From Gemmatimonadota bacterium (GTDB lineage Bacteria; Gemmatimonadota; Gemmatimonadetes; Gemmatimonadales; GWC2-71-9): 64,000 nucleotides of DNA. Shown here piece after piece: positions 29,374 to 44,577 of this stretch. The stretch spans positions 4,723,138 to 4,787,137 of the forward strand of contig CP070666.1 in assembly GCA_020351775.1 (NCBI GenBank). Direction: 5' to 3'. How positions within the stretch are numbered: position 1 is the first letter of the stretch; each line of letters begins with the position of its first letter. The translations under genes were made by a program, and so were the position numbers. The notes under the pieces are model-generated. The model saw only the letters and a list, made by a program, of their open reading frames with translations, was not told where the DNA came from and searched no databases.

Positions 29374-32300
29374 TCATCCACCCGGTTTCTTGGGCACCTC
29401 GATCGGCTCACCCGGGTCGGGTCGGATTTTGTGCTCGTCGCAGGCACGATACAAGGCTGGCAGTCGTTCATTGATCACATCGTTGATTTGCTCCACCAGA
29501 CCTGGGACTTTCTCCCACGCCTGATCGATCTGCCACAACTGGTCCGCGGTAGGCAGCGCGGTGGACCCTTCAATGGCATTTGCCACTCTGGCATCGCGGT
29601 TGGCCTGGTTCAGCTCCTGCCGAATCTCACCGATCATTTCGCCTAGTTGCTTTGCCTGTTCCATCAGCGATTCGGGTGCGGCTTCGTGTTGCCTCAGGAG
29701 CTCCTCGATTTCGGTGACCCTGCCACTCAGTCGGGACACAGCCTGCGTCGCTTCACGGATGGATTTGCTGAGCTCATAGACGCTCATCAAGGCATCCTGC
29801 CGCGCCCGCAGGTCCGCATCCGATATCTCAATTCGTGGATCTCCACGGACTTCTACCTCCTCAGAGAACGTCTGACCGGCAACCTGCAACTGTACGGTGT
29901 ACGTCCCGGGCAACACGCGAGGCCCGGTCGGGCCGACCCCCCCCTGGCTTCCAGGCGTGCTGTACGGTGGTTCGATCCGCAGATCCCATATCACTTCGTG
30001 AACCCCCGGATCACCCGGTCCTTCCAGTTCGCGCACCGCCTCACCGCTGGAATCCAGCACTGTGAGCTTAGCATTCGTTTCGCTCGTTCCATGCGATCGA
30101 GGCTCTTGCACCTGGCGCTGCACGCTGGGCCCTCCGTTGGACGGCGTAGTCGCTACGACCGGGGCTTCTCCCCCCTCCAACTTGTCCCGCAGGTAGTAGC
30201 GGATGCGCGCTCCTATCGGCGGATTGGCTGCAGCATAGTCGGCATGCCAGAACGGCCAGCTACCGGCCAGCGAGTACATGGTGGCCGCGCGTATCGGAAA
30301 CACGTGCGCGGTAGTACCCAGCAACTCTGAAGTCAGCTGCTCCAGGGGGATTATGTCATCCATGATCCAAATGCTGCGCCCGTGGGTTCCCAATATTAGG
30401 TCATTGTCGCGCCCGTGGATCACGATGTCGTCGACCGGTACCGTGGGGAGGTTGTTCTTCAGACGCGACCAAGTACCGCCGCGGTCAACCGAGAAATACA
30501 CGCCAACCTCGTTGCCCAGGAACAGCAGGTTCTGGTTGCTGACATGCTCAGCAATCACGTTCACCGACCAGCCGTGCGGTAGACCCTCAGTGATGGCCTG
30601 CCACCGCCGCCCGAAGTCCTCGCTCACGTATGCGTAAGGTGCGAAGTCATCGTTGCGGTGTCCGTCAAACGTGGCGTATACCCTGCCCTCAGCGAAGCGC
30701 GATGGGACTATTCTGCTCACATATGTCCGTTCGGGCAGCCCTCTCACGTTCGAGGTCAGGTCAGTCCATGTCGCACCACCATCTCGAGTCAGCTGGACGT
30801 TGCCGTCGTCAGTGCCAACGTACACGACATCGGTGTCGAGCGGTGATTCGCCGATGGTCGTGATATTGCCGTAAGTGGAGATCCCATCGTTTGCCGATAA
30901 CATGGGCTCGGATCCCAGCACGCCCATGATCTCCAACTCCGTACGGTCGATTTGCTTGGTCAGGTCGGGACTGACCTCCTGCCATGTCACACCCCGATCG
31001 GGTGATCGCAACAGCACGTTGGCACCAGTGTAGATAGTCGCAGGGTCGTGAGTCGAAATCACGATGGGAGTGTTCCAATTGAACCGGAATGACCGATCTG
31101 CCTCCTCATCATCGCCAGGCCGCGCCACCGGCCGGATGCGCGTGCCTTCGCCCGTCGTCACGTCGACCCGTCCGATGTTTCCGCCCTGAGACTCCGCATA
31201 GAGAATTGTGTGGTCGGTGGGATCGATGAGGTTGAAGAAGCCGTCACCACCCCAGACGTCGTACCAGTCCGAGTTCTTGATGCCGTAGGCGTTGAGTGTC
31301 CGGCTGGGCCCGCACCATGAGCTGTTGTCCTGCAAACCGCCGCACACGTAGTACGGGTCTCGCATATCGACACCGACCTGGTAGAACTGCCCGATGGCCA
31401 GGTTGTCATACATGCGCCAGCTTCGAGCGCGGTCGAACGAAGCTGCCACACCACCGTCATTGCCAATGATCAAGTGATCAGAATCGCGGGGATCGATCCA
31501 CAGGGCATGGTGATCGACGTGGATATCCTGGGCTCCATCGTTGCGGAACGTCTTGCCCCCGTCTTCCGATATGGCCAGCTGAGTTCCCAACACGTAGATC
31601 CGCTCGGGATCGTTGGGATCGATACGAATCTGGCTGTAGTACATCGGCCTGGGATTCGTACTGCTGATTCTCTCCCACGTTTCACCCCGGTCGGTCGAAC
31701 GGTAGACTCCACTCTTACGTTCAGTCTGTGGCCCTCCACCACCAAACCCGCGCGACGGGTCACGTTTGTCAGCCTCTACCACGGCATACACCAAGTTCCC
31801 ATCACGCCGATAGACATCGAGACCGATTCTGCCCTTGTCACCCTCAGGCAGACCGTTCTCCAATTCCTGCCAAGATTCCCCACCATCGAGCGTGCGATAG
31901 ATTCCGCTACCCGGTCCACCACCATTGAAGCCCCATCCTGTGCGGCGCCGCTGATACATCGCCGCGAACATCGTGTTTGCGTCCCCAGGATCCATAGCCA
32001 AATCGATTGCACCTGTGTTCTCGTCCACGAACAGAACCTTCTCCCACGTATCGCCGCCGTCGCGTGTGCGATATACCCCTCTGTCATCATTGGGGCCCCA
32101 TAGGTGTCCGACTGCAGCAACGTACACGACGTTGGGGTTGGTCGGATGAATGACAATGCGGCCGATGTGGTGTGTGTCATCCAGTCCCATGTGTGTCCAT
32201 GTGTGCCCGCCATTGGTGGATTTGTAGACACCGTTGCCCCAGGGTGAGCTTTGACGGTTCTGGGGCTCGCCGGTTCCGACCCACACGATATTCGGATTCG

Positions 32301-32622
32301 ACGCCGCCAGGGTCACGTCACCGATGGAAGCCGTGGGCTGGTCGTCGAACAGCGGCTCCCAAGTGGTCCCATGGCTCGTGGTCTTCCACAGGCCGCCCGA
32401 TGCCGTCGCGACATAGAAGACCTGCGGCTTGGATTCGACCACCGCCACATCGGCGATTCGGCCTCCCATCACGGCAGGACCGATCTCACGGACCTCGAGA
32501 CCAGCGACAGCAGCTCGCACGTCGGTCTGCGCCAGCATCACGTCGGTGGCAGCCAGTGAGAGGAGAGCCACTGCAGCCACCGCAACCGGGTGGATCACAG
32601 CACAAAAGTCAGGCAACCTCAT
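29374..32622 (-). CDS. Exported VPS10/BNR-repeat (sortilin-like) beta-propeller protein, paralogue B
   Basis: Signal peptide; IGPAVMGGRIAD; repeated SxDxGxTW Asp-box motifs; GGLQDNSSWCGPS; C-terminal FlgD-like domain and coiled coil. Confidence 0.85.
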   Translation of the reverse strand: MRLPDFCAVIHPVAVAAVALLSLAATDVMLAQTDVRAAVAGLEVREIGPAVMGGRIADVAVVESKPQVFYVATASGGLWKTTSHGTTWEPLFDDQPTASIGDVTLAASNPNIVWVGTGEPQNRQSSPWGNGVYKSTNGGHTWTHMGLDDTHHIGRIVIHPTNPNVVYVAAVGHLWGPNDDRGVYRTRDGGDTWEKVLFVDENTGAIDLAMDPGDANTMFAAMYQRRRTGWGFNGGGPGSGIYRTLDGGESWQELENGLPEGDKGRIGLDVYRRDGNLVYAVVEADKRDPSRGFGGGGPQTERKSGVYRSTDRGETWERISSTNPRPMYYSQIRIDPNDPERIYVLGTQLAISEDGGKTFRNDGAQDIHVDHHALWIDPRDSDHLIIGNDGGVAASFDRARSWRMYDNLAIGQFYQVGVDMRDPYYVCGGLQDNSSWCGPSRTLNAYGIKNSDWYDVWGGDGFFNLIDPTDHTILYAESQGGNIGRVDVTTGEGTRIRPVARPGDDEEADRSFRFNWNTPIVISTHDPATIYTGANVLLRSPDRGVTWQEVSPDLTKQIDRTELEIMGVLGSEPMLSANDGISTYGNITTIGESPLDTDVVYVGTDDGNVQLTRDGGATWTDLTSNVRGLPERTYVSRIVPSRFAEGRVYATFDGHRNDDFAPYAYVSEDFGRRWQAITEGLPHGWSVNVIAEHVSNQNLLFLGNEVGVYFSVDRGGTWSRLKNNLPTVPVDDIVIHGRDNDLILGTHGRSIWIMDDIIPLEQLTSELLGTTAHVFPIRAATMYSLAGSWPFWHADYAAANPPIGARIRYYLRDKLEGGEAPVVATTPSNGGPSVQRQVQEPRSHGTSETNAKLTVLDSSGEAVRELEGPGDPGVHEVIWDLRIEPPYSTPGSQGGVGPTGPRVLPGTYTVQLQVAGQTFSEEVEVRGDPRIEISDADLRARQDALMSVYELSKSIREATQAVSRLSGRVTEIEELLRQHEAAPESLMEQAKQLGEMIGEIRQELNQANRDARVANAIEGSTALPTADQLWQIDQAWEKVPGLVEQINDVINERLPALYRACDEHKIRPDPGEPIEVPKKPGG

Positions 32623-32718
32623 GTCACGGTCCTCTGCTATTGTTCTGAAGCGTCCCAAACGCCGGATCGGGAAAAGGGTCTTCCATTTCTCGATCCCTGC
32701 TCTGCGTCACCACTGATC

Positions 32719-35700
32719 TCACGGCCTCCGCGGTACCTCCAGGGCCTCCCCCGGAGACGGTCGAATCCCGTGGTCGTTGAGTTGCGCATACAGCGCTGGT
32801 ATCTGGGTCGTTATGACCTCGTTCAGCCTCTCGATAAGGCCGGGTACTTGTTCCCAAGCTCGATCGATCTGGAACAGTACGTCGGGTGAGGGGCGAGTGG
32901 TTGAACCCTCGAGCATGTATGACGCCCGGGCGCCACGGCTCGCCTGCCCAAGCTCGCGGCTGATGGCACCGAGCTCCGTCGTGATATCGGTGGCGGCCTC
33001 TCCCAGCGATTCGGGAGCTGCTTCGTTGTCTCGGAGCAGGTCCTGGATTTCGGTGAGCTGCTCGTTTAGTTCGCGCACCCGTCTGCCCGCGTCGTAAAGC
33101 GGCTTGGCCAACACGTACATGCTCATTAGCGCGTCCTGGCGGGCCTGCAAGTCGGCCCGCGAGATCTCCACGCGCGGGTCCAGCCTCACTTCGAGGTCGG
33201 CAGTCATGCTCTGACCCGCCGCATCGAGACGCACCGTATAGGTTGCCGGCAGCACCTTGGGACCTGGAGGCGCACCGAAGAAACCTCCTTGCTGGCCGGG
33301 GTCAGGCTCGTAGGGCCGTGGCAACCGGAGGTCCCAGATCACCTCGTGGCCCCCTGCCGCACCCGGTCCATCCAATTCCCTCACAACCGCGCCGCTCGCG
33401 TCCAATATCGTGAGCCTGGCCATGGCAGTGTCGACATTAGGTCCGTTCGATCCCGCAACTGCGGTTGCGGCAGGTTCGATATCCTCCGACAAGTAGTAGC
33501 GGATCCTGGCCCCGTGCGGAGGGTTGGGCGCTGCGAGCGCACCCGGTGTCCAGCCCTGGGGCGTGTACGGCGTGTACGAGCTAACCGAGCGAACCGAGAA
33601 TAGATGAGCGGCAGAGGCTAACACCTCCTGGGACAGTTCCTCCAACGGTGTGATGTCATCCATGATCCAAATCCCACGACCATGAGTGCCGATCACGAGA
33701 TCGTTATCTCTGGGATGCACGATGATGTCGTCAACCGGCACCGTGGGAAGGTTGTTCATCAAACGGGTCCAGCTAGCACCCCTGTTGATCGAGTAGTACA
33801 CCCCGATCTCGTTCCCGAGGAACAGCAGGTTCGGCTGGCGCGGGTGCTCGGCGATGATGTTGACCGACCAGAGCCCGGGAAGCCCTTCGACTATGGGGGT
33901 CCAGCTGGCACCGTAGTCTTCGCTCACGTAGGCGTAGGGATCGAAGTCGTCGTTGCGGTGGCCATCGAACGCCGCGTAGACTCTACCCTCAGCGTGCCGC
34001 GATGCTACCACCCGGCTAACGTAGGTTCGCTCAGGAAGGCCCCGAAAGTTTCCGGTCAGGTCGCTCCAGGTGGCTCCACCATCTCGTGTAACTTGAACGT
34101 TGCCGTCATCGGTCCCAACGTAGACAAGATCACGAGTGAGCGGTGATTCGCTAATTGCAGTCATGTTTCCGTAGGTGGAGATCCCATCGTTCCTGGAAAG
34201 CGCTGGACGCGAAAGCCTGACGCCCATGATCTCCATGGTGTCGCGATCGAGCTGCTTCGTGAGATCCGGACTGATCTGCTCCCATGTGAAGCCACGGTCG
34301 GTCGATTTGAACAGCACGTTGGCACCGACGTAGATGGTGGCGGGATCGTGCGATGACATGACTATCGGCGTATCCCAGTTCCATCTGAACCTCGGCATCT
34401 CGCCCTCTTCGTCTGGCCGACCGCTCGGCCGCACAGTAGTACGCTCCATCGTCTTGAGGTCAACTCGAAAAACGTTACCCCCTTGCGACTCGGCGAACAT
34501 GATGTCCGGATTGCTGGGATCGATCAGGGTATAAAACCCGTCACCGCTACCGACGTTATACCAATCGCGGTTGCGGATTCCCTGGTTGGAAAGCGTGTTG
34601 CTGGGACCACACCAGGACCCGTTGTCCTGTAGTCCACCACACACGTAATACGGATCACGCATGTCCACACCGATCTCATAGAACTGCGCCAGAATCATGT
34701 TGTTGATCTGACGCCAGTTGTCCGATCGGTCGTACGAGATATCGACGCCACCATCACCACCGAGGATCAGGTGATTCGAGTTGGCCGGATTGATCCACAG
34801 CGCGTGGTGATCCGAGTGCACTCCGCGAGCGGCATCCGCAGTGAACGTCTTTCCACCGTCACTCGAGCGGTACAGGTTGGCGCCGGCAGCGTAGACACGT
34901 TCTGGATCATTGGGATCGACACGGATCTGACTGTAGTACATCGGCCGGTTGTTGGTCTCATTCCTGAATTCCCATGTCTCGCCGCGATCCAGGGACCGGT
35001 ATACACCCCTGCCCTGCCGCGCCTCGACTTGGGCGAACACGATGTTGCCATCGCGCCTGTATATGTCGATGCCGATCCGCCCCTTATCGCCCTCCGGCAG
35101 TCCGTTGGTGAGTTCCTGCCAGTTCGCACCGCCATCGGTAGTGCGGTACAAACCACTCCCCGGCCCACCACCGCTAAAGCCGAAGCCTGTACGGCGCCGC
35201 TGATACATGGCCGCAAACAGTGTCTCCGGATCACCGGGGTCCATTGCCAGATCGATGGCGCCGGTGTTCTCGTCGACAAACAGCACCAGATCCCACGTTG
35301 TGCCGCCATCGACGGACTTGTAGACGCCCCGCTCTGGGTTGGGACCCCAGAGATGGCCGACAGCCGCCACGTAGACGACGTCGGGATTCAACGGGTGGAT
35401 CTGAATCCGGGCGATGTGGTGTGTATTGTCGAGACCCATGTGGGTCCACGTGCGTCCGGCGTCGGTCGATTTGTAGACACCGTTGCCCCAGGGAGAGCTT
35501 TGACGGTTTTGGGGCTCACCTGTCCCGACCCAGACGATGTTGGGATTCGAAGGGGCTAGTGTCACGTCGCCCACGGATGAGGTGGGCTGGTCGTCAAAGA
35601 TCGTCTGCCAAGTGGTGCCGTGGTTTGTCGTCTTCCACACTCCACCGGTGGCCGTGCCTACGTAGAAAATCGCCGGGTTGGACTCGACGACCGCCAAGTC

Positions 35701-35871
35701 AGACACCCGGCCGCCCATGATTGCAGGGCCTATGTTGCGCCATTCGAGGGCGGTCGCTGCGCGCTCGAGGCCGGTTTGGGCCGACGCCGGCGCAATGGGA
35801 TGCATGACCGGGACCGCGACAATGGCTGCCAAGGCTAGCCACTGCACATACTTTGGGCTAGGCAATTGCAT
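32719..35871 (-). CDS. Exported VPS10/BNR-repeat beta-propeller protein, paralogue A
   Basis: GGAGG SD before ATG 35871; same architecture as the neighbour, with identical stretches such as WVGTGEPQNRQSSPWGNGVYKST. Confidence 0.85.
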   Translation of the reverse strand: MQLPSPKYVQWLALAAIVAVPVMHPIAPASAQTGLERAATALEWRNIGPAIMGGRVSDLAVVESNPAIFYVGTATGGVWKTTNHGTTWQTIFDDQPTSSVGDVTLAPSNPNIVWVGTGEPQNRQSSPWGNGVYKSTDAGRTWTHMGLDNTHHIARIQIHPLNPDVVYVAAVGHLWGPNPERGVYKSVDGGTTWDLVLFVDENTGAIDLAMDPGDPETLFAAMYQRRRTGFGFSGGGPGSGLYRTTDGGANWQELTNGLPEGDKGRIGIDIYRRDGNIVFAQVEARQGRGVYRSLDRGETWEFRNETNNRPMYYSQIRVDPNDPERVYAAGANLYRSSDGGKTFTADAARGVHSDHHALWINPANSNHLILGGDGGVDISYDRSDNWRQINNMILAQFYEIGVDMRDPYYVCGGLQDNGSWCGPSNTLSNQGIRNRDWYNVGSGDGFYTLIDPSNPDIMFAESQGGNVFRVDLKTMERTTVRPSGRPDEEGEMPRFRWNWDTPIVMSSHDPATIYVGANVLFKSTDRGFTWEQISPDLTKQLDRDTMEIMGVRLSRPALSRNDGISTYGNMTAISESPLTRDLVYVGTDDGNVQVTRDGGATWSDLTGNFRGLPERTYVSRVVASRHAEGRVYAAFDGHRNDDFDPYAYVSEDYGASWTPIVEGLPGLWSVNIIAEHPRQPNLLFLGNEIGVYYSINRGASWTRLMNNLPTVPVDDIIVHPRDNDLVIGTHGRGIWIMDDITPLEELSQEVLASAAHLFSVRSVSSYTPYTPQGWTPGALAAPNPPHGARIRYYLSEDIEPAATAVAGSNGPNVDTAMARLTILDASGAVVRELDGPGAAGGHEVIWDLRLPRPYEPDPGQQGGFFGAPPGPKVLPATYTVRLDAAGQSMTADLEVRLDPRVEISRADLQARQDALMSMYVLAKPLYDAGRRVRELNEQLTEIQDLLRDNEAAPESLGEAATDITTELGAISRELGQASRGARASYMLEGSTTRPSPDVLFQIDRAWEQVPGLIERLNEVITTQIPALYAQLNDHGIRPSPGEALEVPRRP

Positions 35872-35933
35872 CGGATTCAACCTCCGTGTTGAACGCAGAG
35901 TGATGCCTCTGTTGCACGAGGTAGCGATAGCGA

Positions 35934-35961
35934 ATTCTACGCGCGGTACAGACGGGAGCAA
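35934..35961 (-). promoter_or_regulatory. Putative sigma70-type promoter of the VPS10 pair
   Basis: Minus strand TTGCTC-N16-TAGAAT, about 60 nt upstream of ATG 35871. Confidence 0.4.
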
Positions 35962-36102
35962 GGCCGGCGCACCCGGCATCTCCACCCTCGTGCAGAGTGC
36001 AGAGTTCGCTGAGGATCTCACCGTGAAGAGGTCGGAAGTACGCCCTGTACCTCTCAGTTGCCGAAGTGCGCGTTGTAGACAATGGACTCCCCAGGGACCC
36101 GT

Positions 36103-37271: not shown

Positions 37272-39863
37272 TCAGAGACTGGGTTCCTCTGACTTGGGCC
37301 ACACCTCTGTCCAGATGCGCCACGATACCCAACCGCAAAACAGAACCGTGGCTGCAGTGAAGCCGCTGACGCGGAGCATCGCGTTGCCCAGCGCTGCCCT
37401 CGTATCTGGTACCACATCTCCGAGCTCGAATGGGAAGTCGAGCAGAAACTCCGCGTATGCCCCCAATAAAACGAGTCCCAGCAGGGTCACGCCAACCGCT
37501 ACTGCCGTCGCAGTTCGCCGCCAGAACCGACCCAATGCCCCCAGTGCCAACAGTGCCAGCCCCAGAATCCGTACACCCACCAGCCACTCGTGGAATCCGG
37601 CGTTATACCCGTATGTGAGCCTCGCCAGGTCGGTCCAAGCGAATATCGCGACACTTGCTCCAAGTGCCAACATCAAGGGCCATTGCTGGAACGCCCCGTC
37701 CTGCCCGATGTGCCCCGGGAGCGGCGTCCGGCGCCGCAACGCTTCTCGACCGGCGTGCGCAGTCATGTGCGAGTCAGGTCGATCCAACCTGCGATTGGCG
37801 CGATGCGAGCGTGGCGCTGGTTCCTCACGAGCGGACTCGGCAGACTGAGCGATGCCAACGTGTATCTCGGGTGTCGCTCGCGACTCAGCAGCTCTGGCTG
37901 CAGCATCTTCAGGCTGCTTGGCGCCGACGTCCGGCTCTTGGACAATCGCAGTAGGCTCTTCGGACGTATCCGGCACTCCCAGCACCTCCGGCTGCACCGC
38001 TGACAGCGAATCATCCTCCCGTGGCTGCACGGCTTCCGGCGCTGTGACATCCGGAGTGCTCTGAGCGGTTGACCCAGGTTCGTGCGGGACCTCCACGTCG
38101 GCCACCGGCCGTGGGGGTTCTTGCGGCGTCGGCTCGACTCCCAGTAGCTCCTCGACGGATACCGGCACCTTGTGAGTCACGTCAGCGATCGTCCACGGCT
38201 CGATCAACTCGGTTTCTGCAGAATCCGCCCCCGACCGTGGTACTCCCAGTAGGTCTTCGATGGATGGCTCTTTAGAATCGGTCCCGGCCTTCATCTCTTC
38301 GTATTGCGACCAGCTTTCTACCAGCTCGTCCGCCTCGGCTGCCACTCGAGGTGCACCAGTCCCCTGTTCCCGAGCCGCCTGGTCCCTGATGGAGGCTGCA
38401 GATTCCGGCGGTGCCATGGTCTGGCCTTCTTGTGCCGCCGGTTCCTCTGCCTGGGGCCTAACGAGACACTGGTATCCTCCGAACGTCCCGTTTCCCGCGT
38501 TCCGGGGGATCGCCGTGAGCAAGGCCGGCAGCACCGCTCCGTCCTTTGTCCGTAGGCGGATGGGAAGGTTCTTGACGAAGCCATGCTTCTGCACATTCTC
38601 TCCGAACAAGCGAGCGTCCGGAACTGCTGCGTAGAGCTTCCGGGCCTTGACGTTGATCATCTCTTCGCGGTCATAGCCCCACAGTTCTACCGCCGCTTCA
38701 TTCACCTCAGAGATGCGGCCATTCTCACCTGTGAGATAGACCGGATCCAGAGTGTGCTCAAAAAGCGAACCGTACCTCTCCTCGGTTTCGCGCAGCTCCT
38801 GTTCGTCCTGTCTGCTCTTTTTTCTCTCTCGCGCGACGACGAGAGTGTATGTCCGGTTGGCGAAGTCACGTTTGGTGACAGCTACTTCCACAGGAAAACC
38901 ACTGCCGTCACGACGCCGGTGCACCCTGCCACAGACCCACGGACGCTGCACCCTACGCGCCTCCGTCTCGACATCCGCCTCACCGTCCGGACAGCCCAGC
39001 GGGAACTCGACGTCGACATCGTGGATCGTGGAGGAGAGGAGCTGCGTTCGGGGCAGTCCAAGCCACCTCAGTGCCGTCTCATTGGCATCGATGAATCGAT
39101 CGGTCTCTGGATCGATCACGAAAATGGCCTCGTCCGCTTGATCGATCAGCGACCTGAATCTGGAGAGCGATGCCAGCGTCCGCCTGAGACTCGCCATCTC
39201 ACCAGAGAGCTTCTCGATTCGAGCCTCCAGCTCCTCACGCTCGACACGATGCAGCGCCTGCGTCTCACGCACGGCCTGTTCTGTCTTCTGCTGCTGCCTG
39301 CTCTCACGCGCCACTACCAGAGTGTAGGTCCGGTTCGAGTAGCGGCGCTGCGCGACGGCGACCTCAACGGGAAAGCAAGTCCCGTCACGGCGGCGGTGGA
39401 CTCTGTTGCACACCCAGGAGCGGCGCAAATCCCTCGCGTTCCCCGATGGGTCTGACTCAGACTCCGGGTATGCCAGCGGGAACTCGACATCGACGTCGTT
39501 GGTAGTCAGCTGGAGAAGTTCCTGACGGGAAAGGCCAAGCCATCTAAGCGCTGTCTCGTTGGCATCGACAAACCTGTCAGTCTCAGGGTCGATCACAAAG
39601 ATGGCCTCATCCGCCTGATCAATGATGGTCCTGAATCTGGCGTGGGATACCAGAACGTGTTTGAGGCTATCCATCTGCCCTGACAACGTGTCTAGATGTG
39701 CATCCATCTCCTGAGGCTCGACTGGACGGGCCACCTCTGGACCGGTCACTGCCCGTGACGGACGGGGAGGTGTGACCTTCCCCAATCCCTCGGTTGAGAT
39801 CCGGCCGCGGTGTGGCGGCTTCCACCCTGTTGCTGGTTTTTCGTCGCTGTTTCTTTCTGACAT
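37272..39863 (-). CDS. Triple-PAS protein with long acidic/Pro-rich linker and C-terminal 4-TM domain, no output domain
   Basis: PAS signatures RFRTIIDQADEAIFVID...RRRDGTCFPVEV (two copies) and RYGSLFEHTLDPVYL...; ~250 aa low-complexity linker; four hydrophobic segments at the C-terminus. Confidence 0.85.
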   Translation of the reverse strand: MSERNSDEKPATGWKPPHRGRISTEGLGKVTPPRPSRAVTGPEVARPVEPQEMDAHLDTLSGQMDSLKHVLVSHARFRTIIDQADEAIFVIDPETDRFVDANETALRWLGLSRQELLQLTTNDVDVEFPLAYPESESDPSGNARDLRRSWVCNRVHRRRDGTCFPVEVAVAQRRYSNRTYTLVVARESRQQQKTEQAVRETQALHRVEREELEARIEKLSGEMASLRRTLASLSRFRSLIDQADEAIFVIDPETDRFIDANETALRWLGLPRTQLLSSTIHDVDVEFPLGCPDGEADVETEARRVQRPWVCGRVHRRRDGSGFPVEVAVTKRDFANRTYTLVVARERKKSRQDEQELRETEERYGSLFEHTLDPVYLTGENGRISEVNEAAVELWGYDREEMINVKARKLYAAVPDARLFGENVQKHGFVKNLPIRLRTKDGAVLPALLTAIPRNAGNGTFGGYQCLVRPQAEEPAAQEGQTMAPPESAASIRDQAAREQGTGAPRVAAEADELVESWSQYEEMKAGTDSKEPSIEDLLGVPRSGADSAETELIEPWTIADVTHKVPVSVEELLGVEPTPQEPPRPVADVEVPHEPGSTAQSTPDVTAPEAVQPREDDSLSAVQPEVLGVPDTSEEPTAIVQEPDVGAKQPEDAAARAAESRATPEIHVGIAQSAESAREEPAPRSHRANRRLDRPDSHMTAHAGREALRRRTPLPGHIGQDGAFQQWPLMLALGASVAIFAWTDLARLTYGYNAGFHEWLVGVRILGLALLALGALGRFWRRTATAVAVGVTLLGLVLLGAYAEFLLDFPFELGDVVPDTRAALGNAMLRVSGFTAATVLFCGWVSWRIWTEVWPKSEEPSL

Positions 39864-41843
39864 GCGCTACACAACCTCAGCCCAACGGGTTCTGCGGCAC
39901 CCCACTGCTGCCAGTAGGCCACCGCCCACCTGTCGCGTGGTTTGGACTGCCCCCGCGGAATACACCAGAAGGCACCGTTGCTGAGGCTCACCTGATCGAG
40001 ATCCTGCTAAGGTACCACGGCAATTCCGCGGGCGGAATGGTCCCCCCTTAGTAAGTGGTTCGGGGCTCGCGCCGTTCACCGCGCTCGCCCCAGGCGCCAC
40101 AGAAACGCCGCAAGCCCAACACAACCCAACACGGTCACAGCGGTGAACTCCGACGCCCGCCGCCTAGCGCTGTCCAGCTCGGCGTCGGATACGACGTCCC
40201 GGAGGCCGAACGGGAAATCGAGCAGGTAGGCGCCATAGGTGAAGAGCATGACGAGCGCCACGCCTAGGCATACGACAGCGAGCGCTCTGGCAGCACCCTT
40301 ACCTCGTGGACCCGCGATCCCGAGGGCCACTAGGCCGCCCGCCAGGAAGCGCAGCGCATACTGCCACTCCTGAACACCAATGTTGTACGGAAAGCCGGCC
40401 ACTGCCGCGTCAGTCCAGCCAACCAACGAGAGTACCACCCCGAGCGTCAGCAGCGACCACCAGAAGACCGGCCGCCTCTTGGCGGCGACTGGCGGAGGAG
40501 CGGGACGGCGTTGCCACGGGGCTGCCCCTACTGGATCTTCCTTGATCCGACCGGCGTCGACGCATTTGCGAGATGACCGGTGCGCCGATCGAGTTGTGAC
40601 GGGTGCGCCCGCGTGGACCTCGTAGCCGTGAGCGGAGCCCATCAATGGACTGAACACCACGCCCGCATGTTGATCTTTGACGGGGCCAGCTCCTGGCGTG
40701 CTTTGCGAAGGTCCACCTAACTCACGTGGCCGTTTGGGATCGTCGGGTGCGACCGCCGGGGTGACATCGTCTTCGACAGGTCCGGCGCCCGCGCGGTCCT
40801 CCGGGATGTCACTGGCCAGTTCCTCTGATGCGTGACACGGTTCCTCCTCCCACACTGGGTCCGAAGACGCCTCCTCCCAATCCGGCATACTGATGACACC
40901 ATGTGCCTCCAGATCACCGTACGATGCAGCAGCCTGCTCGATCTCCCGGGATTCGGAGCGCTCCGCTGGCGCATCCTCATTGTCTGCCACGCTCGCTGCA
41001 GTTGCCTTGTGGTCCGCCGATTCGGCAACGGAACCATCCTCACAAGGTCGCTCAATATCCTCCTGCGCCGCTCGTTCGATCTCGCCTGCTTCTTCCGAGC
41101 AAGTGAAGGTCTCCGACGGGTCCGCTCCGCAGCGGATGAGACACTGGTATCCGCCAATGGCGCCGTCGCCTGTGTGCCTCAATGTCGCCGTCAACAGACC
41201 GAGGAACACCGAGCCGTCACGGGCACGGAACTGGATCGGGAAATCGCGGACGTAACCGCTCTCTTCGACAATTTCCTGGAACCTGCGGATATCTTGAGCG
41301 TCGGTGTAAAGAGCCCGAGCTTCGAGGCCGATGAGGTCCTGCTCGGGATACCCGAACCGCTCGACTGCAGCCCGATTGACTCTGGCGATCCGGCCATCGC
41401 GTGTGGTGATGTAGATGGCATCGTGAGATAGGTCGAAGAGACTGTGGTAGTCTCCCTCCGCCTCACGCAACGCGTGCTCAGCCCGCTGGCGGCGCTTGCT
41501 CTCACGAGCGACAACGAGTATGAACGTGCGGTCCGCGAAGCGGCGCTGCGCCACGGCTACGTCCACCGGAAAACAGGTGCCGTCCCTGCGACGGTGAACA
41601 CCTTCGCCGTGAATCCACGGTCGATCCAGGTTCCTGGTATCGGTGACGTGGTCCGCTCGAGTCTCCCTGTATTCCAAGGGGAACTCGACGTGCACGTCAT
41701 TCACGGTGAGTTGCAGCAACCGGCTTCGTGCTAGGCCGAGCCACCGCAGCGCAGTCTCATTGACGTCGACGAAGCGTCCGGTGGCCGCGTCGATCACGAA
41801 CATGGCCTCGCCCGCCTGGTCGATCAGCGTCCTGAAACGGGCC
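38828..41843 (-). repeat. Three closely related PAS-coding units (about 38828-39163, 39309-39642, 41504-41843)
   Basis: Shared peptide RFR(S/T)(L/I)IDQA(D/G)EA(I/M)FVID...F(V/I)D(A/V)NETALRWLGL...DV(D/H)VEFPL...VHRRRDG(T/S)xFPV(E/D)VAV...RT(Y/F)xLVVARE. Confidence 0.85.
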
Positions 41844-42097
41844 AACGGGGCCAGCGTGCGTCTCAGCTTGGTCAACTCGGCTGAGAGTCGTTCGACCTGC
41901 CTCTCGAGTTCGTGCCGGGAGACCCGGTCGACCGCGTCAGACAGATCGGCATGGGGCGAGGGCGAGCCTGTCACGCCAGGATGCTCATCAGCACCCTGCC
42001 CAGAAGGCCCTGATTTATCCGGCCCGTCGACCGGTAGCTGCCCAGCATCGGGATCTATCATTGGTTGGCCGCCAAGCGTGCGCCTGCGTTCCGACAT
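40076..42097 (-). CDS. Double-PAS protein with acidic linker and C-terminal 4-TM domain (paralogue of 37272-39863)
   Basis: Both proteins start MSER; homologous PAS units; shared C-terminal motifs WTD, YNxGxxEW and LLDFPFxLxDVV. Confidence 0.85.
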   Translation of the reverse strand: MSERRRTLGGQPMIDPDAGQLPVDGPDKSGPSGQGADEHPGVTGSPSPHADLSDAVDRVSRHELERQVERLSAELTKLRRTLAPLARFRTLIDQAGEAMFVIDAATGRFVDVNETALRWLGLARSRLLQLTVNDVHVEFPLEYRETRADHVTDTRNLDRPWIHGEGVHRRRDGTCFPVDVAVAQRRFADRTFILVVARESKRRQRAEHALREAEGDYHSLFDLSHDAIYITTRDGRIARVNRAAVERFGYPEQDLIGLEARALYTDAQDIRRFQEIVEESGYVRDFPIQFRARDGSVFLGLLTATLRHTGDGAIGGYQCLIRCGADPSETFTCSEEAGEIERAAQEDIERPCEDGSVAESADHKATAASVADNEDAPAERSESREIEQAAASYGDLEAHGVISMPDWEEASSDPVWEEEPCHASEELASDIPEDRAGAGPVEDDVTPAVAPDDPKRPRELGGPSQSTPGAGPVKDQHAGVVFSPLMGSAHGYEVHAGAPVTTRSAHRSSRKCVDAGRIKEDPVGAAPWQRRPAPPPVAAKRRPVFWWSLLTLGVVLSLVGWTDAAVAGFPYNIGVQEWQYALRFLAGGLVALGIAGPRGKGAARALAVVCLGVALVMLFTYGAYLLDFPFGLRDVVSDAELDSARRRASEFTAVTVLGCVGLAAFLWRLGRAR

Positions 42098-42142
42098 TCA
42101 ACTGCCAATCCAGACCGCGCGCCCCGCCCGGCCTGGCAATCC

Positions 42143-42171
42143 AAAATACCCCTAGAAGCTTGCTACGTCAG
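42143..42171 (-). promoter_or_regulatory. Putative sigma70-type promoter for the PAS-4TM genes
   Basis: Minus strand CTGACG-N17-TATTTT, about 45 nt upstream of ATG 42097. Confidence 0.35.
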
Positions 42172-42174
42172 GGT

Positions 42175-42199
42175 TTATCCACATCTCGCCTGTGGATAA
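42175..42199. promoter_or_regulatory. Inverted pair of perfect DnaA boxes
   Basis: TTATCCACA (42175-42183), 7-nt spacer, TGTGGATAA (42191-42199). Confidence 0.7.
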
Positions 42200-42517
42200 G
42201 CAAGAGACATGCCCCACCCTACAGCGGCTAATCCGGTGTGATTGGCGATTCTGGCGGATCGGTGCAGCAGGACGGCTGGGTGGGATGGGCGAGACATCGT
42301 AGCCGCAGTCGGCCCGAACCCGAAGTCAACAGTGTAAGTTACTTGTTTGCAAATAGTTAGCTGTACAAGCCTGACTGACCGACTAAACCGTCCTTCACCT
42401 CGGGTACTGTAGAGAGGATCCGCCAGTGTGCGGTTTCCGCAACGATCTTCCCGATCGTTTGGTACGCCCTTCGAGCATCGGATGGGGCATCCAGACCCCG
42501 CCGGGAGGGGACCCGGT

Positions 42518-42526
42518 TGTGGACAA
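42518..42526 (-). promoter_or_regulatory. DnaA-box-like site (one mismatch)
   Basis: TGTGGACAA, i.e. TTGTCCACA on the minus strand, in the same intergenic region. Confidence 0.4.
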
Positions 42527-42579
42527 CCACTCCATCTCGTTACGGGCCCGTGATATACGCGACGGGGCGGCGCCAATGC

Positions 42580-43710
42580 CTATTGCAGGCCCACGAGTTC
42601 AGCGTTCGATTCAGTGTCCTTCATGTATGTGAGAACCGCGTTCATCTGATCAAATGGCGTCATCCCACCCAGTTGCCGGCGCAGAGCATTGGACGTGGTA
42701 AGGGCCGCCTCAGAAAGGAGCAGCTCCTCTCGCCGCGTCGCACTCTGATCCAAGTCGATCGCCGGAAATAGCCTACGCTCGGCCAGCTCGCGGCTGAGCA
42801 CAAGCTCACTATTGCCGGTACCTTTGAACTCCTCGAAGATCACCTGGTCCATTCGTGAGCCAGTATCCACCAGGGCAGTTCCCACAATTGTCAACGACCC
42901 CCCCCCTTGCGCTGCATCGATCTTGCGGGCACTTCCGAGGAACCGTTTCGGTTTCTCCAGCGACATCGCATCCAGTCCTCCGGACAGAGTTCGCCCACTC
43001 CCCGACTCGACCGTGTTGTGGGCGCGAGCCAGCCTCGTGATCGAGTCGAGGATGATCACTACATCATCGCCCTGCTCGACGCGCCGGCGCGCCCGCTGTA
43101 ACGTCATCTCTGCGACGGCAACATGTCGTTCTGCCCGCTGGTCGAAGCTAGATGCTATCACCTCACCGAATCCGCAGACTTCCATCTCCGTCACTTCCTC
43201 GGGTCGCTCGTCTATCAGCAGGATCAGTAGGGTGCACTGCGGGTAGTTTGTCACTACACCTTCGGCTATGGCCTGGAGCACCATGGTCTTACCGGCTTTG
43301 GCCGGCGCGACGATCAACGACCGCTGTCCCTTTCCGAACGGACAGAACAGATCGATGATCCGATTGGTGTAGTCCGGTTTACCCCTCCGCATCAAGCCAC
43401 AGTCGAGTACGAGTTGCTCGTCGGGGTGTACAGCCCTCAACTTGGTGAACTCGCCTCTATCTGCGACGGCGCTGGGATCGAGCCCGTTGACCAGATCCAC
43501 GCGTACCAACCTGGGGCTCTTGCCCCGCTTACCGGGCTTCCCCACCTCACCTGTTATCGCGTCACCAGTGCGGAGCTGCAATCTGTCGATCATCCGCCGG
43601 CCTACGTAGACATCGTTCTTGCCGGCTAGGTAGCCATCTTCACGCCGGCGGATGAACCCGGCGCCGTTGCCAAGTACCTCGAGTACGCCGAGTTGTTCCG
43701 ACTCGGTCAT
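42580..43710 (-). CDS. rho: Transcription termination factor Rho, short form lacking the N-terminal helical domain
   Basis: GVLEVLGNGAGFIR (OB fold), Walker A APAKAGKT, LLIDERPEEVTEM, Walker B LDSITRLARA, SGRTLSGGLD, TGSRMDQVIFEEFKGTGNSEL, ATRREELLL. Confidence 0.92.
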   Translation of the reverse strand: MTESEQLGVLEVLGNGAGFIRRREDGYLAGKNDVYVGRRMIDRLQLRTGDAITGEVGKPGKRGKSPRLVRVDLVNGLDPSAVADRGEFTKLRAVHPDEQLVLDCGLMRRGKPDYTNRIIDLFCPFGKGQRSLIVAPAKAGKTMVLQAIAEGVVTNYPQCTLLILLIDERPEEVTEMEVCGFGEVIASSFDQRAERHVAVAEMTLQRARRRVEQGDDVVIILDSITRLARAHNTVESGSGRTLSGGLDAMSLEKPKRFLGSARKIDAAQGGGSLTIVGTALVDTGSRMDQVIFEEFKGTGNSELVLSRELAERRLFPAIDLDQSATRREELLLSEAALTTSNALRRQLGGMTPFDQMNAVLTYMKDTESNAELVGLQ

Positions 43711-43736
43711 CACACAAACACCGTTTCAGCAATCAT
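43710..43736 (-). other. 8-codon leader ORF (MIAETVFV) overlapping the rho start
   Basis: GGAGAG SD-like motif, ATG at 43736; its TGA (43712-43710) overlaps the rho ATG as TGATG. Confidence 0.4.
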
Positions 43737-44066: not shown

Positions 44067-44577
44067 GCAGGTCGGTCACACCGTCAGCAACCATCCATCC
44101 CGTGTTCATGACAGCCGAGTCGTAGTCGTGCTGCGCGGCTGCCCTCTACTCAAAAGCCTATCAGCCACGTGTGGGACAATTGCAGCCCGCCCTGTACCCG
44201 ACTGGCTATCGCATCCTCTCAGAACTCGATCACTCACGCGTGTGGAGACCGGTCTCATTCACAGCGCAACGCCGAGCTGAGATTGCGGTTGCCTCGGCTC
44301 GCTAGGACCCGAGCATCCCGCCCCGCTCGCTGAAGCGAATTCACGTCGCCTCGAAGTGGTTCAGGAGACCTGCCGATGGTACTGGCTCAGCTCTCTGGCG
44401 GTGTGCACCAGAAGACATAGATTATGTGTAGTCAACCGCGGGCGTTGGCCTATTAATGATCGAGATATTGACCGGCGATTGCCAGTGCTGGAGTGCAGCG
44501 GGATCGCCGTTTGTGTTTCACCCCCCGGTCACTACCTCTAGAGGCTACCCCGGCTTTGATTGGTCTGGAGGCGCAAT

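Follow-up and report, generated by a model that had tools for sequence, protein, structure and literature searches.

Gene organization of the tandem pair

Two adjacent genes lie on the minus strand of the window, by which we mean the whole stretch of 64,000 nucleotides from a sediment Gemmatimonadota bacterium that was analysed here, and both open reading frames (ORFs) were found as the original prediction had described them (all feature coordinates below are window positions on the minus strand). The ORF at 37272..39863 encodes the long paralogue of 863 amino acids (P0001), which consists of an N-tail, two successive units of a coiled coil and a PAS-A domain, a PAS-B domain, an acidic linker and a membrane domain of four transmembrane helices (4TM), as assigned from the ORF, Pfam, NCBIfam and the AF2 model m8867372852c1. 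The ORF at 40076..42097 encodes the short paralogue of 673 amino acids (P0002), with a coiled coil, PAS-A, PAS-B, an acidic linker and a 4TM (ORF, Pfam and NCBIfam). The start of P0002 is uncertain, as the ATG at 42097 gives 673 amino acids and the GTG at 41974, used by the gene call in the public collection, gives 632. The two proteins share 39% identity from end to end over 662 columns (E 3e-116), the C-terminal membrane part included. They are separated by a spacer of 212 bp (39864..40075), whose length is similar in three related contigs (212–235 bp) and in which a scan for promoters and terminators revealed nothing convincing, the counts being not above those of shuffled controls. No transcripts of this stretch were found, and the matching public runs are DNA only, from sediment and mangrove metagenomes.

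About 40 proteins of the same plan are present in public metagenomes and metagenome-assembled genomes, which indicates that P0001 and P0002 are neither chance ORFs nor a single case. In the search of genome contigs the matches were obtained with an alignment as the query, while a single protein as the query gave none. Moreover, the long and the short forms adjoin each other on several independent contigs, so the tandem pairing is conserved and a heteromer of the two products is plausible from their gene order. We found no published description of a PAS array lacking an output domain combined with an acidic linker and an HpsJ-like 4TM.

The two genes adjoin rho and sortilin-like genes. The short Rho encoded upstream was considered as a specific partner and rejected, because copies with 58–88% identity occur in many genera that do not have the fusions. 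This Rho is not the main one of the genome, which is encoded at C1:2.437 Mb, but a second paralogue; it is not linked to the fusions in another genome of the same genus (G001), and no rho gene adjoins the more distant PAS-4TM genes. A PAS kinase of 427 amino acids, encoded at 44560, is conserved only inside a close synteny block. Both the short Rho and the kinase are tied to P0001 and P0002 by local synteny only, and none of the compared contigs revealed a neighbour conserved across the family of PAS-4TM genes.

The PAS array

Pfam detected three PAS stretches in P0001 and two in P0002 and no other family above threshold, and the only NCBIfam model above threshold was the PAS S-box model TIGR00229 (127 and 89.5 bits for P0001 and P0002, respectively). 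The domains belong to the PAS superfamily (PAS_9, 105 and 71.9 bits; PAS, 94.7 and 78.9 bits), and the AF2 model has PAS folds, with a long helix ahead of each PAS domain of P0001 (residues 50–83, 189–242 and 350–370). Pfam and AF2 agree with the predicted order of a coiled coil leading into the PAS domains. The first unit of P0001 (residues 50–188; 39300..39716; AF2 and Pfam) comprises the coiled-coil helix 50–83 and PAS-A copy 1, with strands in residues 87–187. The second (residues 189–349; 38817..39299; AF2 and paralogue alignment) comprises a connector helix of 54 residues and PAS-A copy 2, which is the copy that aligns with PAS-A of P0002. PAS-B follows (residues 350–470; 38454..38816; Pfam, alignment and AF2) and terminates in an invariant GGYQC motif. 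In P0002, the coiled coil, PAS-A and PAS-B occupy residues 56–322 (41132..41932; Pfam and alignment). PAS-B is FixL-PAS-like by sequence, as it aligns with the PAS domain of FixL (1d06, E 2e-9). A haem PAS of the FixL type was nevertheless rejected, since the position of the proximal F-alpha His is R or Q in this family. Inspection by eye revealed no LOV or PYP motif, and judged from its sequence the PAS array is without a recognisable cofactor motif.

No match to HisKA, HATPase, GGDEF, EAL or MCP models was obtained in P0001 or P0002 with Pfam and NCBIfam even at E values up to 1, and kinase, GGDEF, EAL and MCP domains are also absent from the approximately 40 family members. The claim that the pair has no kinase, GGDEF, EAL, HTH or MCP domain was upheld in these searches, and as far as domain models can tell neither protein has an output of the enzymatic or DNA-binding kind. 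This also distinguishes them from the receptors of the Aer type. Both have a cytoplasmic PAS ahead of a membrane segment; in Aer, whose PAS is N-terminal, the linker is short and structured and the membrane hairpin is followed by a HAMP-MCP output, whereas Pfam and NCBIfam detected no HAMP-MCP domains in P0001 and P0002.

In the structure search, the best match of the PAS array was PpsR lacking the HTH (4hh2, E 5e-17, 417 columns). Like P0001 and P0002, PpsR/CrtJ has several PAS domains joined by long helices, and both proteins give partial matches to TIGR02040; unlike them, it has a C-terminal HTH and no membrane tether made of a linker and a 4TM. Membership in the PpsR family was rejected, as the TIGR02040 scores are 67.6 and 57 bits against a cut-off of 275.4 and an HTH is missing. 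No true PpsR was found in the genome that carries P0001 and P0002. The PAS domains of PpsR serve oligomerisation and the binding of a partner (AppA), not catalysis. The PAS part is probably a cytoplasmic rod linked by coiled coils, with a PpsR-like fold and in a dimeric state.

The same core of coiled coil, PAS-A and PAS-B, which corresponds to residues 56–322 of P0002, occurs in approximately 30 Gemmatimonadota species in proteins where a degenerate receiver replaces the linker and the 4TM. One copy is present in the same genome as P0001 and P0002 (C1:1235009-1236739). This PAS/pseudo-receiver family (for example, P0033 and P0042) has 35–55% identity to P0001 and P0002 in the core and also has no output domain. 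The differences are that its members have an extra N-terminal PAS, are soluble and end in the receiver-like domain. The family is more widespread than the PAS-4TM fusions, and no conserved neighbours were found across 25 loci. The position of the acceptor Asp, D57 (CheY numbering), is D in 12 of 35 sequences and otherwise occupied by G (11), A (10) or E (2); that of D13 is D in only 2 of 35, and K109 is kept in 24 of 35. A true response-regulator receiver, with its acceptor Asp and acidic pair D12/D13, was rejected for this family, the acceptor Asp being mostly replaced; the scores against Pfam Response_reg are 17–35 bits. The presence of the PAS core together with a degenerate receiver in about 30 species suggests that the core works without a classical output.

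The acidic linker

The linker of P0001 (residues 471–726; 37686..38453) was delimited by pLDDT values of 31–38 and composition, and counts 258 amino acids by motifs, of which 50 are acidic and 22 basic. That of P0002 (residues 323–545; 40463..41131; alignment A2 and composition) has 224 amino acids, with 45 acidic and 21 basic ones. Disorder-promoting residues make up about 71–72% of both, which is in line with the disordered acidic leash of about 200–250 residues that had been proposed. Within the P0001 linker, the motifs DELVESWSQYEEMKAG (512–527) and EPSIEDLLG (532–540), at 38244..38330, are conserved in 12 orthologues, in which L514, S517, W518, Y521, E522, M524, S534 and L538 are invariant, and the only sizeable helix that AF2 places in this linker is 510–527. 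Two motifs of the P0002 linker are conserved in the lineage in alignment A2, namely VVFSPLMGSAHGYEV (480–494; 40616-40660) and APWQRRPAPPP (526–536; 40490-40522). Motifs that are short and invariant, inside a disordered stretch of varying length, are what is typically seen where proteins bind partners.

Only the linker is left unassigned in the two proteins, and it is there that an artefact or decay, in the form of a frameshifted sensor kinase or a degenerate catalytic domain as the original prediction had warned, would have to be located. This explanation found no support and is hardly credible, being contradicted by the evidence: the linker gives no match at E values up to 1 and has pLDDT below 40, its length varies from 74 to 351 amino acids across the family with the reading frame kept, and none of the approximately 40 intact homologues of the same plan carries a kinase. 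A long exposed linker would be open to a protease, and the PAS core also occurs in soluble paralogues, so one could assume that the PAS array is inactive at the membrane and is freed by cleavage in the linker, in the manner of membrane-tethered regulators. This is very unlikely, because there is no linked protease gene in the examined neighbourhoods, no DNA-binding domain to be set free, and P0001 and P0002 have four transmembrane helices, unlike the known substrates of intramembrane proteolysis, which are single-pass proteins.

Polar scaffolds of the SpmX and PodJ kind recruit kinases, and the logic of their architecture is similar to that of P0001 and P0002, with a folded cytoplasmic module, an acidic disordered region and C-terminal transmembrane helices. 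The comparison with PodJ made in the original prediction holds as an analogy of architecture; the closer case is SpmX and not PodJ. In Caulobacter, SpmX consists of a folded domain, an acidic Pro-rich disordered linker and C-terminal transmembrane segments (PMC5347347). It differs from P0001 and P0002 in its lysozyme-like domain and its two transmembrane segments, and there is no homology in sequence or fold. Membership among such scaffolds was rejected, since P0001 and P0002 have no homologous lysozyme-like or PodJ domain and the likeness is one of architecture alone.

The membrane domain and its relatives

The 4TM covers residues 727–854 of P0001 (37302..37685) and residues 546–668 of P0002 (40094..40462). 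The predicted C-terminal four-helix membrane domain was confirmed by hydrophobicity and by AF2, which places the helices of P0001 at 728–743, 757–776, 778–809 and 821–854 with pLDDT 82–90, and the four hydrophobic segments together with the positive-inside pattern are compatible with a topology in which both termini are inside. The domain is homologous to stand-alone membrane proteins of Gemmatimonadota of about 170 amino acids. In a phmmer search of 1.84 billion representatives they were matched with E about 1e-7, and a profile built from the stand-alone proteins only, without the fusions, recovered the 4TM of P0001 and P0002 with E 2.5e-12 and 3.2e-8, respectively. By these comparisons, the 4TM is a diverged branch of the stand-alone family.

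The stand-alone proteins in turn match HpsJ-like NCBIfam models in each of 12 tests (E 1.8e-9 to 3e-5), with scores of 16–37 bits that are all below the curated cut-offs (60 bits for NF038305 and 140 bits for NF050013) and with matches confined to roughly the first 100 positions of the models. PF28006 is precomputed on the stand-alone proteins and likewise on P0150, a protein that scores 59.5 bits with HpsJ_fam, near the threshold; PF28006 probably represents the HpsJ family, and no name for it was found in the local Pfam or in the literature searched. An hhalign comparison of the stand-alone alignment with P0150, a single HpsJ-like sequence as the target, gave 59 columns with P 8e-4 and a probability of 24%, and alignment A1 gave no match to P0150. 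P0001 and P0002 themselves match neither the HpsJ models nor PF28006 and are not HpsJ members by cut-off, so the similarity to HpsJ (NF038305, NF050013/14/19; associated with hormogonium polysaccharide and cyanoexosortase) runs through the stand-alone relatives only. They also differ from HpsJ in being fused to PAS domains and in belonging to a genus without exosortase, and the fused clade has lost a segment of 10 residues (T..LD..P) that is conserved in both the stand-alone and the HpsJ proteins, which suggests that the fused membrane domain may have changed its function. No fold or family for the 4TM was found with the local Pfam, a sequence search of the PDB and Foldseek on the PDB.

Thus, of the proposal that the 4TM is a plain, nameless anchor, the membrane domain stands and the namelessness does not, since the domain belongs to a stand-alone family with sub-threshold similarity to HpsJ. 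Nor does the C-terminus match a known output family, the HpsJ-like proteins being a named, biochemically uncharacterised and non-signalling family. The hpsJ gene of Nostoc punctiforme (Npun_F0077) is part of the hps locus, and an altered polysaccharide was reported after it had been deleted (PMC10581220, PMC5702739).

The most conserved positions of the 4TM are in the extracytoplasmic loops (GW[TS][DE], EW and FPF.L.D.VPD). Since the loops are the best-conserved part, they could sense a cue in the envelope or the periplasm and, by a shift in oligomerisation, alter what the PAS array binds, and in the sister family a (pseudo)receiver, which is an input-type module, has the same C-terminal position. 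Such outside-in sensing is improbable, as the loops measure no more than about 12 and 25 residues and contain no ligand-binding fold, no fold match being found in the PDB.

The polysaccharide locus and the origin of the fusions

In at least nine genomes, the stand-alone 4TM genes are located, often in tandem, inside a conserved polysaccharide locus, which contains genes for an outer membrane protein (OMP) barrel, unk330, the 4TM (×2), unk277, an XrtA-system deacetylase, FemAB and an aminotransferase. The deacetylase (TIGR03006) and FemAB (TIGR03019) are both above cut-off in nine genomes, and some of the HpsJ-like matches adjoin an exosortase gene. The location of HpsJ-like relatives in a locus of the XrtA/PEP-CTERM type shifts the reading towards the cell envelope, and the 4TM appears to descend from small membrane proteins of exopolysaccharide/exosortase clusters, with a similarity to HpsJ that is below the cut-offs. 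The genome with P0001 and P0002 retains the polysaccharide locus, at C1:3.709-3.715 Mb and with OMP-barrel and unk330-repeat proteins, without the 4TM genes, and the fusion genes are about 1 Mb away from it and not in an exosortase or polysaccharide locus. No exosortase and no stand-alone 4TM were found in any of the eight genomes of this genus, and unk277 is absent from the genus as well. The lack of exosortase in the whole genus weakens a direct link to it. In this genus the 4TM persists only as PAS fusions, so that stand-alone and fused forms have a complementary distribution across genera.

The PAS core is also joined to a 4TM of the stand-alone type in another genus (L118 and L119). A single fused clade was rejected on the tree of the PAS core (p-AU 0.025) and not on that of the 4TM (p-AU 0.52), in a test whose groups were picked after viewing the trees and in which long branches are present. 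The fusion may have arisen twice.

These distributions bear on the explanation that the 4TM is an effector that keeps an HpsJ-like role in the export of polysaccharides or surface proteins, with the PAS arrays as a regulatory input fused to it. The proteins would then possess an output, in the shape of a component of a membrane machine. The stand-alone relatives within the polysaccharide locus, the loss of the 4TM genes from the locus of this genome, which leaves the fusions as the only 4TM copies, the conservation peak in the extracytoplasmic loops and the joining of a PAS core to a 4TM of the stand-alone type in another genus are consistent with it. However, a disordered linker of 220–260 amino acids would transmit a conformational change poorly, exosortase and unk277 are missing from the genus, the fused clade has lost the motif shared by the stand-alone and HpsJ proteins, and the genes are remote from the polysaccharide locus. 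We consider this explanation possible and rather doubtful.

Proposed mechanism and implications

The reading we prefer, to which we give a probability of roughly 45%, is that P0001 and P0002 are membrane-tethered PAS adaptors on a repurposed membrane module of an exopolysaccharide (EPS) locus. Both proteins would sit in the inner membrane with the PAS rod in the cytoplasm, and the 4TM would hold them there as homo- or hetero-oligomers, possibly beside remnant polysaccharide machinery. A cytoplasmic signal would lead the PAS array and the linker motifs to bind soluble partners or to let them go, and we infer that the signal would be passed by recruitment or sequestration and not by allostery through the linker. 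What the analysis establishes is the anatomy, the homologies, the gene contexts and the distribution among taxa, and what it proposes is the adaptor mechanism, the oligomers, the partners and a tie to polysaccharide export. The earlier idea of a membrane-tethered PAS sensor or scaffold is retained here as to the flexible acidic leash and the lack of an output domain, and is changed as to a purely anonymous anchor, the 4TM belonging to a family with sub-threshold similarity to HpsJ.

It is difficult to assign a PAS protein to a pathway when it has no output, and the Gemmatimonadota abound in soils and sediments and have received little study. The analysis links a PAS core of this kind, a long acidic disordered tether bearing motifs and an HpsJ-like membrane module; furthermore, it defines a conserved module of the polysaccharide locus (OMP barrel, unk330, 4TM ×2, unk277, deacetylase and FemAB) and shows one genus without exosortase and stand-alone 4TM genes. 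If the 4TM only anchors the proteins in the membrane, the pair remains a lineage-specific curiosity of domain architecture. The findings lead to the hypothesis that regulation, or the tethering of signalling proteins, takes place at a site of polysaccharide or surface-protein export in Gemmatimonadota. In cyanobacteria, hpsJ is genetically tied to motility-associated polysaccharide; annotation pipelines have a name for HpsJ-like proteins, and we know of no mechanism or regulator for them. Read as a Rosetta stone, the fusion would mean that the PAS/pseudo-receiver proteins of Gemmatimonadota and the HpsJ-like membrane proteins of exosortase-type polysaccharide loci act together, which we put forward tentatively and think unlikely on present evidence. 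If it is true, P0001 and P0002 would be the first recognisable sensory input to the machinery associated with HpsJ and exosortase.

Organization of the paralogous pair

The two minus-strand genes are adjacent in the window, at 37272–39863 (P0001, the long paralogue, 863 aa) and 40076–42097 (P0002, the short paralogue, 673 aa from ATG; a public collection instead places the start at GTG 41974, for a product of 632 aa), and the ORFs and translations agree with the original prediction. The alignment of the two proteins begins with the first coiled coil and extends through the last membrane helix, at 39% identity (E = 3e-116), as claimed for paralogues. According to Pfam, P0001 has three PAS stretches and P0002 has two, with no other family matched above threshold, and the PAS S-box model was the sole above-threshold match in NCBIfam, where partial matches to multi-PAS models including PpsR (67.6 and 57 bits, cut-off 275) are far sub-threshold. 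In the AlphaFold2 model of P0001, for which a family alignment of 35 sequences was the input, a long helix precedes each of the three PAS folds (50–83, 189–242 and 350–370), residues 471–726 have a pLDDT of 31–38 except for a helix at 510–527, and the C-terminal helical membrane domain (728–854) reaches 82–90. The linkers (258 aa in P0001 and 224 aa in P0002) contain more acidic than basic residues (50/22 and 45/21, respectively). Hydropathy and the Lys/Arg distribution are consistent with four transmembrane helices and a predicted topology with both termini in the cytoplasm, the basic residues lying in the N-flank, the short loop 2 and the C-tail, and the acidic ones in loop 1. Outside-in sensing via conserved periplasmic loops of the membrane (4TM) domain is a rival reading of the function that we consider improbable. 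Thus, the ORFs, domain searches, alignment, model and topology confirm the initial observation in every particular, namely coiled coils with PAS domains, a disordered acidic linker, a C-terminal four-helix membrane domain and the absence of any output domain.

The family and its linker motifs

A search of 5.8 billion proteins revealed about 40 that share this plan, each of metagenome or MAG origin, and record titles assign them to Gemmatimonadota, Gemmatimonadales and Gemmatimonadaceae; that the arrangement is an artefact is extremely improbable. The DNA of the window itself was found only in DNA runs, from metagenomes of sediment and mangrove. The family architecture is one to three units of coiled coil plus PAS-A, one PAS-B, the linker and the 4TM domain, and PAS-B terminates in an invariant GGYQC. 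The Cys of this motif, in the last PAS-B strand (P0001 residue 466, window 38466–38468; P0002 residue 319, 41141–41143), is kept in 35 of 35 aligned members; it may serve in redox chemistry or cofactor attachment, or have no more than a structural role.

The linker ranges from 74 to 351 aa across the family, and its sequence is variable save for short motifs conserved inside orthologous groups. The long form has the invariant residues L514, S517, W518, Y521, E522, M524, S534 and L538 (12 sequences) in a motif DELVESWSQYEEMKAG ... PSIEDLLG, which coincides with the sole sizeable linker helix in the P0001 model, and the short form carries VV.NRL.GS..GYE and APWE.KP.PP. This conservation pattern and the length variation rule out that the linkers conceal a catalytic domain or a kinase disrupted by a frameshift, either of which the original prediction had named as refuting it. 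A disordered tether of such length and variability is unlikely to relay a conformational change; nonetheless, it carries the conserved short motifs. Freeing of the PAS array by proteolysis, another reading of such a tether, is still less probable than sensing through the periplasmic loops.

Relatives of the PAS array

In the PDB, the full-length P0001 model is closest to PpsR lacking the HTH (4hh2; 417 columns aligned, E = 5e-17), followed by other tandem-PAS proteins; the likeness to PpsR lies in the PAS array and the difference in the HTH, which P0001 does not have. No true PpsR was found in the genome of the window. By analogy, the PAS array resembles one that works by oligomerisation and partner binding. 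PAS-B is akin in sequence to the FixL PAS domain, and a FixL-type haem PAS was rejected, as the haem-ligating His is not conserved. The PAS-A segment DVEFPL.YP... is a conserved loop of low model confidence, at the position where PAS domains usually have the E/F helices.

About 30 further Gemmatimonadota species also have the core of coiled coil, PAS-A and PAS-B, in proteins ~590–620 aa long which, unlike P0001 and P0002, have an additional N-terminal PAS and a weak receiver-like domain in place of the linker and 4TM domain. A third core paralogue in the same genome (own-genome contig coordinates C1:1235009–1236739, minus strand; fetched locus L117 7010–8740) consists of a long coiled coil, the core and a receiver-like domain. 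With residue positions set by a CheY ruler sequence, the phospho-acceptor position is Asp in only 12 of 35 receiver-like domains and most no longer have the acidic pair. The domain is largely a pseudo-receiver, and the whole core family thus lacks a classical output. No conserved neighbour was found around its soluble members.

Kinship of the membrane domain

The 4TM domain matched nothing in local Pfam or PDB sequences, and its AF2 model (pLDDT 78.7) had no significant Foldseek match. When 1.84 billion cluster representatives were scanned exhaustively with phmmer, just 24 relatives emerged, among them stand-alone proteins of about 170–180 aa. In genome searches, the PAS-fused form was found in seven of the eight genomes of the window's genus, including the window's own, and in at least two other genera, and the stand-alone form (160–225 aa, often as adjacent pairs) in 40 of the 301 genomes sampled from the phylum; the two forms occur together in no genome examined. 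A profile made from stand-alone proteins only, searched against six-frame ORFs of the window's genome, recovered P0001 (E = 2.5e-12) and P0002 (3.2e-8) and no other match better than E 0.01, so that the relationship of their 4TM domain to the stand-alone family is solid.

The stand-alone proteins matched the NCBIfam HpsJ-like models (NF050013, NF038305) in 12 of 12 tests, always over model positions ~4–100 and below the cut-offs (E = 1.8e-9 to 3e-5, 16–37 bits). In a large protein collection they carry precomputed PF28006.1, an accession newer than our local Pfam. The HpsJ-like protein P0150 (300 aa) likewise has PF28006.1 and matches HpsJ_fam over the whole model (59.5 bits, cut-off 60); hhalign of the stand-alone alignment against this single sequence aligned TM1, the loop and TM2 (P = 8e-4, but a probability of only 24%). 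Hence the stand-alone family is probably related to HpsJ, at a sub-threshold level, and P0001 and P0002 themselves have no direct match to the HpsJ models or PF28006. The earlier reading of the membrane domain therefore stands as regards its four helices, and changes mainly in that the domain belongs with a stand-alone, probably HpsJ-like family. We know of no mechanism for HpsJ.

Polysaccharide loci and exosortase

In Nostoc punctiforme, hpsJ (Npun_F0077) is located in the hormogonium-polysaccharide locus (PMC10581220), and its deletion is reported to alter polysaccharide in a statement of PMC5702739 citing Risser and colleagues. The stand-alone 4TM genes are within one conserved cluster in nine Gemmatimonadota genomes (L023, L024, L025, L027 and L125–L129), with a partial version in four more. 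The cluster comprises an OMP beta-barrel gene (~1000 aa, CarboxypepD_reg + OMP_b-brl_4), unk330 and unk277 (~330 and ~277 aa, without family assignment), one or two HpsJ-like 4TM genes, a sugar aminotransferase, an XrtA-system polysaccharide deacetylase (TIGR03006, 320–341 bits, cut-off 276) and a FemAB-family XrtA/PEP-CTERM-associated protein (TIGR03019, 286–302 bits, cut-off 260), the last two exceeding their cut-offs. Outside the window's genus, 24 of 53 relatives carry exosortase (PF09721), which is found more often with stand-alone or HpsJ-like genes (16/22 genomes) than without (8/31; Fisher p ~0.001, uncorrected for phylogeny), and in three genomes an HpsJ-like match is at most 2.5 kb from the exosortase gene. 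The membrane module has its own history as a polysaccharide/exosortase-locus component.

No exosortase was detected in the eight genomes of the window's genus. The polysaccharide locus of the window's genome (C1:3.700–3.716 Mb, in L124, C1:3700000–3719999) contains the aminotransferase, FemAB (302 bits), deacetylase (341 bits), OMP barrel and glycosyltransferases, together with an O-antigen-ligase-like gene. Through rearrangement the locus has come to consist of two divergent arms; unk330 is doubled there into a 722-aa ORF, 4TM genes are absent from the locus, and unk277 is nowhere in the genome. The XrtA-system-named deacetylase and FemAB genes persist there despite the absent exosortase. It is conceivable, at roughly one chance in four, that the fused 4TM domain retains an HpsJ-like effector role controlled by the PAS arrays.

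Evolution of the fusion

In the 4TM tree, the fused forms of the window's type form one clade (100/99) apart from the stand-alone forms, and have lost a 10-residue segment (T..LD..P) conserved in stand-alone and HpsJ proteins. The duplication into long and short paralogues came after the fusion. Two minus-strand fused genes of genus g9 (L118 1379–3334 and L119 1092–3221; PAS core, linker and 4TM) encode a 4TM of stand-alone type with T..LD..P retained, and their PAS cores fall within the pseudo-receiver clade; they may represent a second, independent fusion. A single clade of all fused cores was rejected on the PAS tree (AU p = 0.025) and not on the 4TM tree (p = 0.52), with groups named after seeing the trees and long branches involved. 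This difference suggests two separate joinings of the modules or else a single old fusion with later domain swaps.

Gene neighbourhood

Neighbours in fetched loci were taken from crude longest-ORF calling followed by tblastn or hmmscan identification. Three related contigs share the order PAS kinase (opposite strand), short Rho, short PAS-4TM, long PAS-4TM and two sortilin/BNR-like genes, with a spacer of 212–235 bp between the PAS-4TM genes. The short Rho (window 42580–43713, minus strand, 377 aa) lacks the N-terminal helical bundle and is the genome's second Rho paralogue; the main one lies at C1:2436966–2438045 (~2.437 Mb; 433-aa frame). As it is found at 58–88% identity in many genera of the family that have no fusions, the short Rho is an old paralogue not tied to the PAS-4TM genes. 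The remoter, single-copy family members have entirely different neighbours. Thus, the linkage to Rho and the kinase, which had been put forward as possible partners, is local synteny and not a conserved system.

A gap of ~480 bp (window 42098–42579) separates rho from the short PAS-4TM gene; related contigs have a gap of comparable size, with small ORFs of 71–83 aa called in it. Promoter and terminator scanning gave counts not above shuffled sequence. Directly downstream of the pair, two paralogous genes (29374–32658 and 32719–36021, minus strand) encode sortilin/VPS10-BNR-like secreted proteins of ~1100 aa; the pairing is kept in related contigs, with GH38, GH20 and CBM9 genes nearby.

Proposed function

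The component parts are of already known kinds: PAS domains, a PpsR-like array, a membrane module that is HpsJ-like via its stand-alone relatives at sub-threshold level, and an SpmX-type tether (PMC5347347). In the libraries and papers searched, we found no description of the combination of PAS array, linker and 4TM, or of a link between an output-less PAS family and HpsJ-like/exosortase-locus membrane proteins. The function we infer, with the HpsJ link below threshold, is that P0001 and P0002 are membrane-tethered adaptors (probability about 0.45). This reading is favoured because neither protein has a catalytic or DNA-binding part, the array is PpsR-like, the disordered tether bears motifs and the 4TM has a polysaccharide-locus history. 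We assume that the 4TM part would position the proteins in the membrane as homo- or hetero-oligomers, perhaps beside the remaining polysaccharide machinery, where the PAS array and linker motifs would capture or release soluble partners upon a cytoplasmic cue.
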